64,000 nucleotides of DNA, taken from the NCBI GenBank assembly GCA_964016885.1, contig OZ024743.1:31248001-31312000 (forward strand), read 5' to 3'. Of the stretch, positions 40,984-42,891 are shown in pieces. Position 1 is the stretch's first letter; the number at the start of each line of letters is the position of its first letter. A program made the translations under genes and the position numbers. Origin of the DNA: Eledone cirrhosa. Lineage: Eukaryota. Under the pieces are notes generated by a model that saw nothing but the letters and a program-made list of their open reading frames with translations, ran no database searches and was not told where the DNA came from.

Positions 40984-41023
<40 letters not shown>

Positions 41024-41834
41024 CCATCAATACAAACACAAAGTAACACTTATTAAGAGTTTAAATATAAATATAATACATATATTATTTACAGTATAAA
41101 GAAATGAATAAAAATAAACATATAATATATAATATACTATATAATTATATAATTTATAATCTCCGGTCAATTTGCTCAAACAATATAAATATTACAATAA
41201 CACTATAATAACAATATTATAATATATTGGCATATAACTTAACAAATCATATAAAGTTACACACAGGGTAAGAAAAAAAAATATCATACAGAACTAAATT
41301 GTGTTGAAAAAATTGTGCTGGAAAAATATCTATACCGTTGTAACAAAACAGACGGAGGTCAAGTTTTTATACAATTGGTACAAATAAATATTATCTAAAC
41401 ATTATAAAAATTATAAAAACATATTACAGAATTTACAAAATTTAACATAATGGTACATTGAATAATCGGTAAATATTTAAGATCTATAGTACGATTACAA
41501 ACAGTGATATGATATAACAACTTCAATATTAAATAACAAACATAGTATAAGTATACATAATTACATGGCTGGTAGACAGACATGTGTGAATAAGTTAATA
41601 AGAACCAGACAGAAACTACGCACGGTAGTAAATAAACATAAATAAAATCAACCGGAAATAAAAAAACAAAAACAAATATATTTACTTAGGTGAACACAGG
41701 CAGTTAAGTAAAAAAATTAGGAATCAAACCCGGATAAATGATTACTTTTATAAGGTTTTCTAGTCATTTATCCGGGTTTGATTCCTTATTTGTTTACTTA
41801 ACTGCCTGTGACACCTAATTAAATATATTTGTTT

Positions 41835-42236
41835 GATGACCCCTTAGCCTTTGTATAAGCAGAATTCTAGGAGAAGGAAACCTCTGATATAACACCTGCA
41901 ACTGTGATGGTTTCCAATGATGTTGACTTGTTCTTCTTTTTGGTAAATATCATCTTGGTTAAGAGAGTGGGACTGGCTTTGTGCAGTGCCTTTGCTCACT
42001 ATAAAAGCTTCACGCCACAGGCATTGCTTTATATCTGGAGATTGCTCTTCACTTGTCGTCACATGGTACCATGAGCCCAGCATTATGTGTTAATAGTTGT
42101 CACAAGTGTAGTGTTTGTACCAGATTTTTCAAGTCGCTGGCTGGACTAAGAAGTCACACTCGTTCAGCGCATCGGTGAGTGTTTTACATACATATAAAGT
42201 AGTGGCCGTACTCGAAAACGAGTTGGCATCCACCAT
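41835..42236 (+). mobile_element. Non-autonomous bipartite RTE-derived element, 5'-truncated
   Basis: RTE 5'UTR-like motif ctaggagaaggaaa.ctctgat joined to an RTE-type C2H2 end (CSVCTRFFKSLAGLRSH), then hairpin actcgaaaacgagt and an (AT)n tail. Second copy at 61701-62156. Confidence 0.7.
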
Positions 42237-42320
42237 ATATTCATATATATATATATATATATATATGCGCTGAACGAGTGTGACTTCTTAGTCCAGCCAG
42301 CGACTTGAATAATCTGGTAC

Positions 42321-42438
42321 CCGAGGAAGCGCTTATGCCCGAAACGTCGTCCCCCACCAACACCCGACTCTCCAGAGCGTGAAATTAATAAACATTCGTT
42401 GTACTTCCTCTCTGTGTTGTCCCTGTTCAAATTTTTCC

Positions 42439-42440
<2 letters not shown>
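42321..42440 (+). mobile_element. Solo PLE pLTR with hammerhead-like motif
   Basis: CCGAGGA-agcgc(ttat)gccc-GAAAC-gtc-GTC, then AATAAA, ending in (AT)n. Shares ttatgcccgaaacgtc-type sequence with 50968-50995. Confidence 0.6.
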
Positions 42441-42471
<31 letters not shown>

Positions 42472-42825
42472 AACTGATATGCAGTATTCTCAACTCCTGT
42501 AGAACTATTACTTCATAATATAGTATGTGAATTGAAGGTATATCTCAGCAATGAATTCATATATATAGTTCTATTAATTCATTGTATTTAGTGTTTATGT
42601 GTATGTGAAATTCGTAATTGCTTTTAAATACAAATTATTTGAATGATATCAGTTGAGTGACGATTCTTTATTTACTATATTAGACACACGATTCAAAGCC
42701 TCACTTGAACAGATTATGCTGAACATTAGTGGGATATTTGTAATCAGCCTCATATTGTTGGCAGGCTAAAATATATTTTGATTTCACGTAGAGTTGCAAG
42801 AATCACGATAGTCATATATAAATAT

Positions 42826-42891
<66 letters not shown>

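Follow-up and report, generated by a model that had tools for sequence, protein, structure and literature searches.

How did a piece of an older repeat come to lie, in reverse, against the 5' end of a Penelope-like insertion in the genome of Eledone cirrhosa? The question is raised by a single locus in the window, the stretch of 64,000 nucleotides that was analysed here (positions 31248001-31312000 of the 3.0-Gb assembly, contig C4), whose features are collected in the table. The first-pass annotation had described 42265-42320 as a 56-bp reverse complement of 42117-42172 with one mismatch, and this is what we find: over 56 nt the two arms agree at 55/56 positions (98% complementary), separated by a loop of 92 nt. 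The sole mismatch, at 42310, lies in the copy arm and is a new change that arose there. Both joins carry microhomology of 2 nt. At the left join, AT (42265-42266) is common to the copy and the (AT)12 tract, and because these bases belong also to the (AT)n tail, the net insert amounts to 52 nt (42267-42318). At the right join, AC (42319-42320) is common to the template and the Penelope element; in the best other copies the sequence upstream of the pLTR part mostly ends in ...CTCAC, and the dinucleotide therefore belongs to template and element alike. The direct fusion of the inverted piece to the pLTR was thus rightly called, with the correction that the element-derived part begins at 42319, owing to the shared AC, and not at 42321. 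The segment 42265-42320 is an inverted copy made on a local template, and it marks the 5' junction of a Penelope-like insertion that is truncated.

Table. Features at the inverted junction (positions are those of the window)
Feature	Positions	Strand	Remarks
Upstream repeat	41835..42236	+	5'-truncated copy of a ~610-bp non-autonomous repeat, SINE-like
Template arm	42117..42172	+	carries rare variants T at 42125 and G at 42150
AT dinucleotide	42171..42172		within template arm; putative priming site
(AT)n tail of upstream repeat	42235..42266	none	pure (AT)12 at 42243-42266
Inverted templated copy	42265..42320	-	net insert 42267-42318; one new substitution, 42310
Penelope element end	42319..42440	+	last 122 bp, 5'-truncated, Neptune-like, 3' pLTR end
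Hammerhead-like core	42321..42351	+	CUGANGA box, stem II, GAAA, near-palindromic stem III; read by eye
Downstream (TA)n tract	42441..42469	none	followed by flank of low depth

The origin of the template is indicated by two variants shared between the arms. T at 42125 is present in both arms and in 0/30 other aligned copies of the upstream repeat, and G at 42150 in both arms and in 7/30 of those copies; among the first 100 matches listed for the family pattern (16,664 genome-wide), none carries either variant, and each stands at less than about 1% of contig depth. A pattern holding both variants occurs at two places in the 3-Gb genome, namely the two arms. Since this haplotype is confined to the arms, against 16,664 family matches, the proposal that local DNA was the template at the 5' junction is well supported.

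Nor do the 56 bp belong to a pLTR consensus carried by many copies. The best 29 other copies of 42321-42440 all (29/29) align only from query position 54-55 onward and therefore none carries the inverted piece, which rules it out as a part of the family end. The paralog at 61692-62101 (92% identical to 41835-42236) also lacks it, as had been claimed. The description of the piece as locus-specific holds on the strength of the 29 copies, the single paralog having been too weak a basis for it.

The upstream repeat is the older element, and its tail served as the Penelope target. The ~610-bp non-autonomous family to which it belongs has a fixed 5' end. The copy at 41835-42236 may be RTE-derived, as the first-pass annotation has it; what it shows is a C2H2 zinc-finger remnant (42005-42175; Pfam E=0.0003, below cut-off). 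Other copies of this repeat (L087, L104 and L118/L119) show twin-priming-like 5' self-inversions, with an antisense 5' part before the junction, and in one of them the inverted pair is 57 bp apart.

Further upstream in the window, a second Penelope-like family is represented by its 3' end (41018-41760, minus strand); where copies of it are longer, they contain an ORF that has a cysteine-rich linker and matches GIY-YIG weakly (L174, E=0.0029). An older, asymmetric hairpin (41670-41744 and 41761-41834, with arms ~88% identical) is centred on an AT-rich palindromic site of this family and is fused to the 5' end of the non-autonomous repeat; it forms a second fold-back within 500 bp of 42265-42320, and L175 is arranged head-to-head at about the same site. 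This palindrome was rejected as a family terminal repeat, being absent at 10/11 other loci, with L175 as the exception; it could be assigned to neither adjoining element. In L183, the flanking DNA downstream of the second family's segment holds a canonical-looking hammerhead core (CTGATGA ... GAAA).

The inserted element belongs to an abundant family, with 862 exact matches to one pattern of the pLTR end and at least 1,634 to another; the window copy differs from the family majority at 5 positions over 120 nt. Long copies reach ~4.5 kb and contain a broken RT, a CSRPRCNTC linker and GIY-YIG-type motifs (L071, L072). P0001, which passes RVT_1, shares 52% identity with their RT segment. On the broken frames of L071 and L072, Pfam returned RVT_1 at E=0.048 only and no GIY-YIG match, and the endonuclease was assigned from the GIY-YIG-type motifs. 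The predicted order, an RT followed by a putative C-terminal GIY-YIG domain, is that of an EN+ Penelope-like element. Neptune elements are described as having a CX2-5CxxC linker before the endonuclease and as targeting microsatellites, the linker being present also in Nematis and Naiad and hence not exclusive to Neptune (PMC8557442); with such a linker and microsatellite targeting, the family appears to fit a Neptune-like Penelope element. An AT tract adjoins 103/151 of its 5' junctions, and (TA)3 or more follows 140/151 of its 3' ends. Truncation at the 5' end is the rule, and one copy in 179 is clearly 3'-truncated. In 5/179 copies the 3' end leads across a short run of TA into the 5' region of the element, the partial tandem arrangement that defines pLTRs. 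In the tandem copies L190, L011, L140 and L291 the 3' end continues through TATATATA into the copy's own 5' region; the near-invariant 3' end of insertions therefore sits at an internal (TA)4, and reverse transcription may begin with pairing between the element RNA and the (AT)n target. Other copies (L055, L141, L203, L226, L274, L275 and L293), with the 5' region fused directly to the 3' end, resemble non-autonomous internal-deletion derivatives. Upstream of the near full-length copy in L071 lies a diverged (~76%) relative of the pLTR end (L071:4549-4632), followed by a short AT tail.

The pLTR end opens with the motif that the first-pass annotation had called HHR-like. Its core boxes are recognisable by eye against the hammerhead consensus, and boxes and stem II are present in the family; the copy in the window has C in place of the U of the box (42322) and a change in stem II (42330). 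In 41000-43000, searched against Rfam to E=10, there was no hammerhead match (the matches were miRNA-type hairpins only, below their thresholds), and no stem I formed in folds.

Inverted copies of the flank are also found at other 5' junctions of the family. The survey sample consisted of 179 distinct copies, mostly from contig C1 together with the best matches, and is not random. Excluded were 17 copies without a resolved junction and 250 bp upstream and a further 11 (8 with the element's own 5' region upstream, 3 with mis-called junctions), leaving 151 junctions including the query copy, that is, 150 others. With an information-weighted score for inverted copies that derive from the 500 bp upstream and end at the junction, 5/150 other junctions reached at least 20 bits; swapped flanks predict 0.25 and shifted positions 1.66 (P=0.026 for the latter). 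Under a filter of AT anchor and 90% identity, which was chosen after the hits were known, 4/150 stand (L016, L144, L190b and L256) against 0.40-0.54 expected (P=0.0008-0.002). Candidates dropped were L147 (the terminal repeat of a repeated element), L149 (at 84% identity and lying within a repeat), L030 (a family copy 600 bp away), L018 (a direct duplicate in a local array) and L145 (a hairpin of 14 nt, 17 bits).

In L016, ~60 nt were copied, primed on an upstream AT tract. L144 took two steps, of which the first gave a hairpin about the AT tract and the second was a jump to a point further upstream. L256 is a hairpin round the AT tract with arms that differ inside the microsatellite part; in its flank family (3,256 matches), 30/30 sampled loci have no second arm across the tail. 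L190b reproduces the terminal repeat of an adjacent element, for which a direct copy of the far repeat is an alternative. We regard two of the four as firm and two as probable. Scars of this kind recur at a few percent (~3%) of the family's 5' junctions, and this recurrence supports the tie to the 5' junction. In the mirror test, restricted to copies keeping most of the last 120 bp, fold-back was seen at 0/175 3' ends (one-sided Fisher against the 4/150 5' ends ~0.044, calculated by hand), which ties the inverted copies to insertion. Homology on the AT side is present in 5/5 cases (the window and the four others), and microhomology on the element side measures 2, 2, 2, 0 and 0 nt. Two junctions (L257, L258) contain antisense pieces of the element itself. 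In the non-autonomous repeat 70 junctions were examined, and the only one with a non-microsatellite inverted repeat upstream is that in the window; 4/150 for Penelope and 0/69 for the non-autonomous repeat do not differ significantly (P=0.31). There was no sign of a large hidden class of junctions with mirrored microsatellites, 8 reaching at least 16 bits where the shifted control gives 6.7.

We consider it somewhat probable that the (AT)n end of the cut target turned back on itself, was elongated by a repair polymerase and was then joined to element cDNA. The (AT)n tail was the insertion target and would also have been the fold-back primer. The element inserted into the tail of the older repeat, as its position and the habit of the family show, and reverse transcription, presumably by TPRT, stopped after ~122 nt, as is seen in the 5' truncation. 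The upstream end would then have been resected and its 3' AT annealed in cis to 42171-42172, as the microhomology suggests; 54 nt would have been copied leftward to 42117 on the template established above, most likely by a Pol theta-like polymerase in SD-MMEJ; and the new AC end would have annealed to the cDNA and primed the second strand. An inverted insert of local flank, a primer repeat (AT) and a microhomology repeat (AC) are together the layout of snap-back SD-MMEJ. As to which strand primed, we infer from the AT-side homology in all five cases, the lack of any on the element side in two of them and the tract-centred hairpins that the evidence leans mildly to target-end snap-back over an RT jump; the element-side lengths set beside the constant AT side fit priming from the AT side.

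It is possible, if doubtful, that instead the 3' end of the cDNA was extended, by the element RT or a host polymerase, onto the flank at AC/GT 42117-42118, with 56 nt copied and AT annealing to the target. The end product is identical to that of snap-back, and the AT-side homology on which the latter leans comes nearly free in a self-complementary tract. The 92-nt loop and 54-nt copy are also long compared with the primers described in PMC5728401. Junctions of R2 have been interpreted as cDNA snapping back onto nearby DNA (PMC11371274) and the templated insertions of L1 in an SDSA-like way (10.1101/2024.08.27.596794), and L257 and L258 show that cDNA or RNA of this element can be re-primed. 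Microhomology on the element side occurs in 3/5 cases, and the lack of any further case at 69 junctions of the non-autonomous repeat, although a host pathway might be expected there as well, would fit a habit specific to the enzyme; the post hoc choice of the AT-anchor and identity filter likewise weakens the case for snap-back, the unfiltered excess being the 5 against 1.66 given above. Yet a cDNA jump requires that the upstream duplex be opened 90-150 bp from the nick, it finds no element-side homology in 2/5 cases, and the hairpins centred on AT tracts (L144, L256) are the direct product of folding back in cis.

Other readings place the event later or elsewhere. TA repeats are known to break, with repair through Pol theta MMEJ (PMC13645644), and a later break at the fragile (AT)n could have been mended by MMEJ with deletion of the 5' part of a longer element, leaving the templated piece behind. 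The arms have one change in 112 bases and the element 4 near-private ones in 120, a hint of a scar younger than the element that falls short of significance (P=0.37). We nevertheless hold this to be distinctly improbable: such repair should affect both flanks equally, against the 4/150 5' ends, 0/175 3' ends and single clearly 3'-truncated copy, and 5' truncation is already the rule in the family. An antisense fragment of the same repeat family that was independently inserted or captured in trans, and later homogenised by gene conversion, has abundance in its favour, and inverted arms so close together are able to convert. Its likelihood is very slight, as the piece is internal to the repeat, without the family's 3' end and tail, stops exactly at the Penelope junction with microhomology, and shares with its partner a haplotype found nowhere else in the genome, which nearly refutes this reading. 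Finally, among the contigs and reads checked across the fusion at 42265-42320 none spans the junction, as would be the case for a fold-back artefact of assembly or library. The contigs are shattered in these repeats, so this gap in coverage proves nothing; the one-base difference between arms, microhomology at both joins, normal continuation of the flanks and the same layout at four other loci make an artefact hardly credible.

The closest parallels come from repair and from non-LTR elements. In SD-MMEJ by Pol theta (PMC5728401) the flank is copied in inverted form from a short inverted-repeat primer, TA and AT being among the most used in snap-back, with a new microhomology at the end, and there are multi-step cases comparable to L144. 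Primers in that system lie mostly less than 10 bp apart and up to ~30 bp from the break; here the loop (92 nt) and copy (54 nt) exceed its usual products, and the other end is retrotransposon cDNA. Short local genomic DNA is likewise copied into L1 junctions: 22 templated insertions were reported among 3,598 in tumours, from templates under 250 bp and within 15 bp of the site (10.1101/2024.08.27.596794), and in induced clones inverted DNA was present in 3 insertions and locally templated DNA in 3 (PMC11702581). Our case differs from these in being germline, in a Penelope-like element and a palindromic (AT)n target, with the template end 92 nt from the junction; the rates (~3% here, ~0.6% for L1) come from methods that are not comparable. 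For R2 a snap-back class of 5' junction has been named, an opposite-strand copy for which cDNA is the usual template and nearby rDNA the rarer one (PMC11371274), R2 there being an engineered, site-specific non-LTR element in rDNA with junctions interpreted as cDNA-primed. Microhomologies and target rearrangements accompany R1 and R2 junctions in Drosophila (PMC2718515). In Penelope-like elements, inverted self-copies and junction palindromes have been ascribed to self-priming (PMC8557442, PMC3846280); L257 and L258 are alike, while 42265-42320 differs in that host flank is inverted. We found no report of inverted host-flank copies at Penelope junctions in the literature searched, outside of which lay most subscription journals and the supplementary junction figures for L1, and the accessible portions of PMC13580325 and 10.64898/2026.07.22.740005 hold nothing on such junctions. 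The type of mechanism is already known from L1 and R2; its host-flank version in Penelope, at a palindromic target, seems unreported.

The locus is a real and unusually well-documented templated insertion of snap-back layout at a Penelope-like 5' junction, one of a small recurrent class, and taken singly 42265-42320 is a neutral scar without sign of function. Because (AT)n is its own reverse complement, folding back of the target end might even be routine when microsatellite-targeting Penelope elements close their 5' junctions, possibly carried out by the telomerase-related RT; we think this unlikely. If it were so, the ~3% with copied flank would be the visible tail of events that mostly copy AT alone and lengthen the tract unseen, and Penelope elements would expand AT microsatellites and seed local hairpins. 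The steps that finish a Penelope-like insertion, in second strand and 5' junction, are left without validation in the accessible text of an in vitro study of a Poseidon element (PMC11167929). What the junctions described here point to is an upstream target end that can lie free, and be copied in cis, ahead of closure, in the manner of L1 and R2, and inverted-flank junctions provide a signature that can be scored for host repair as against the RT of the element.
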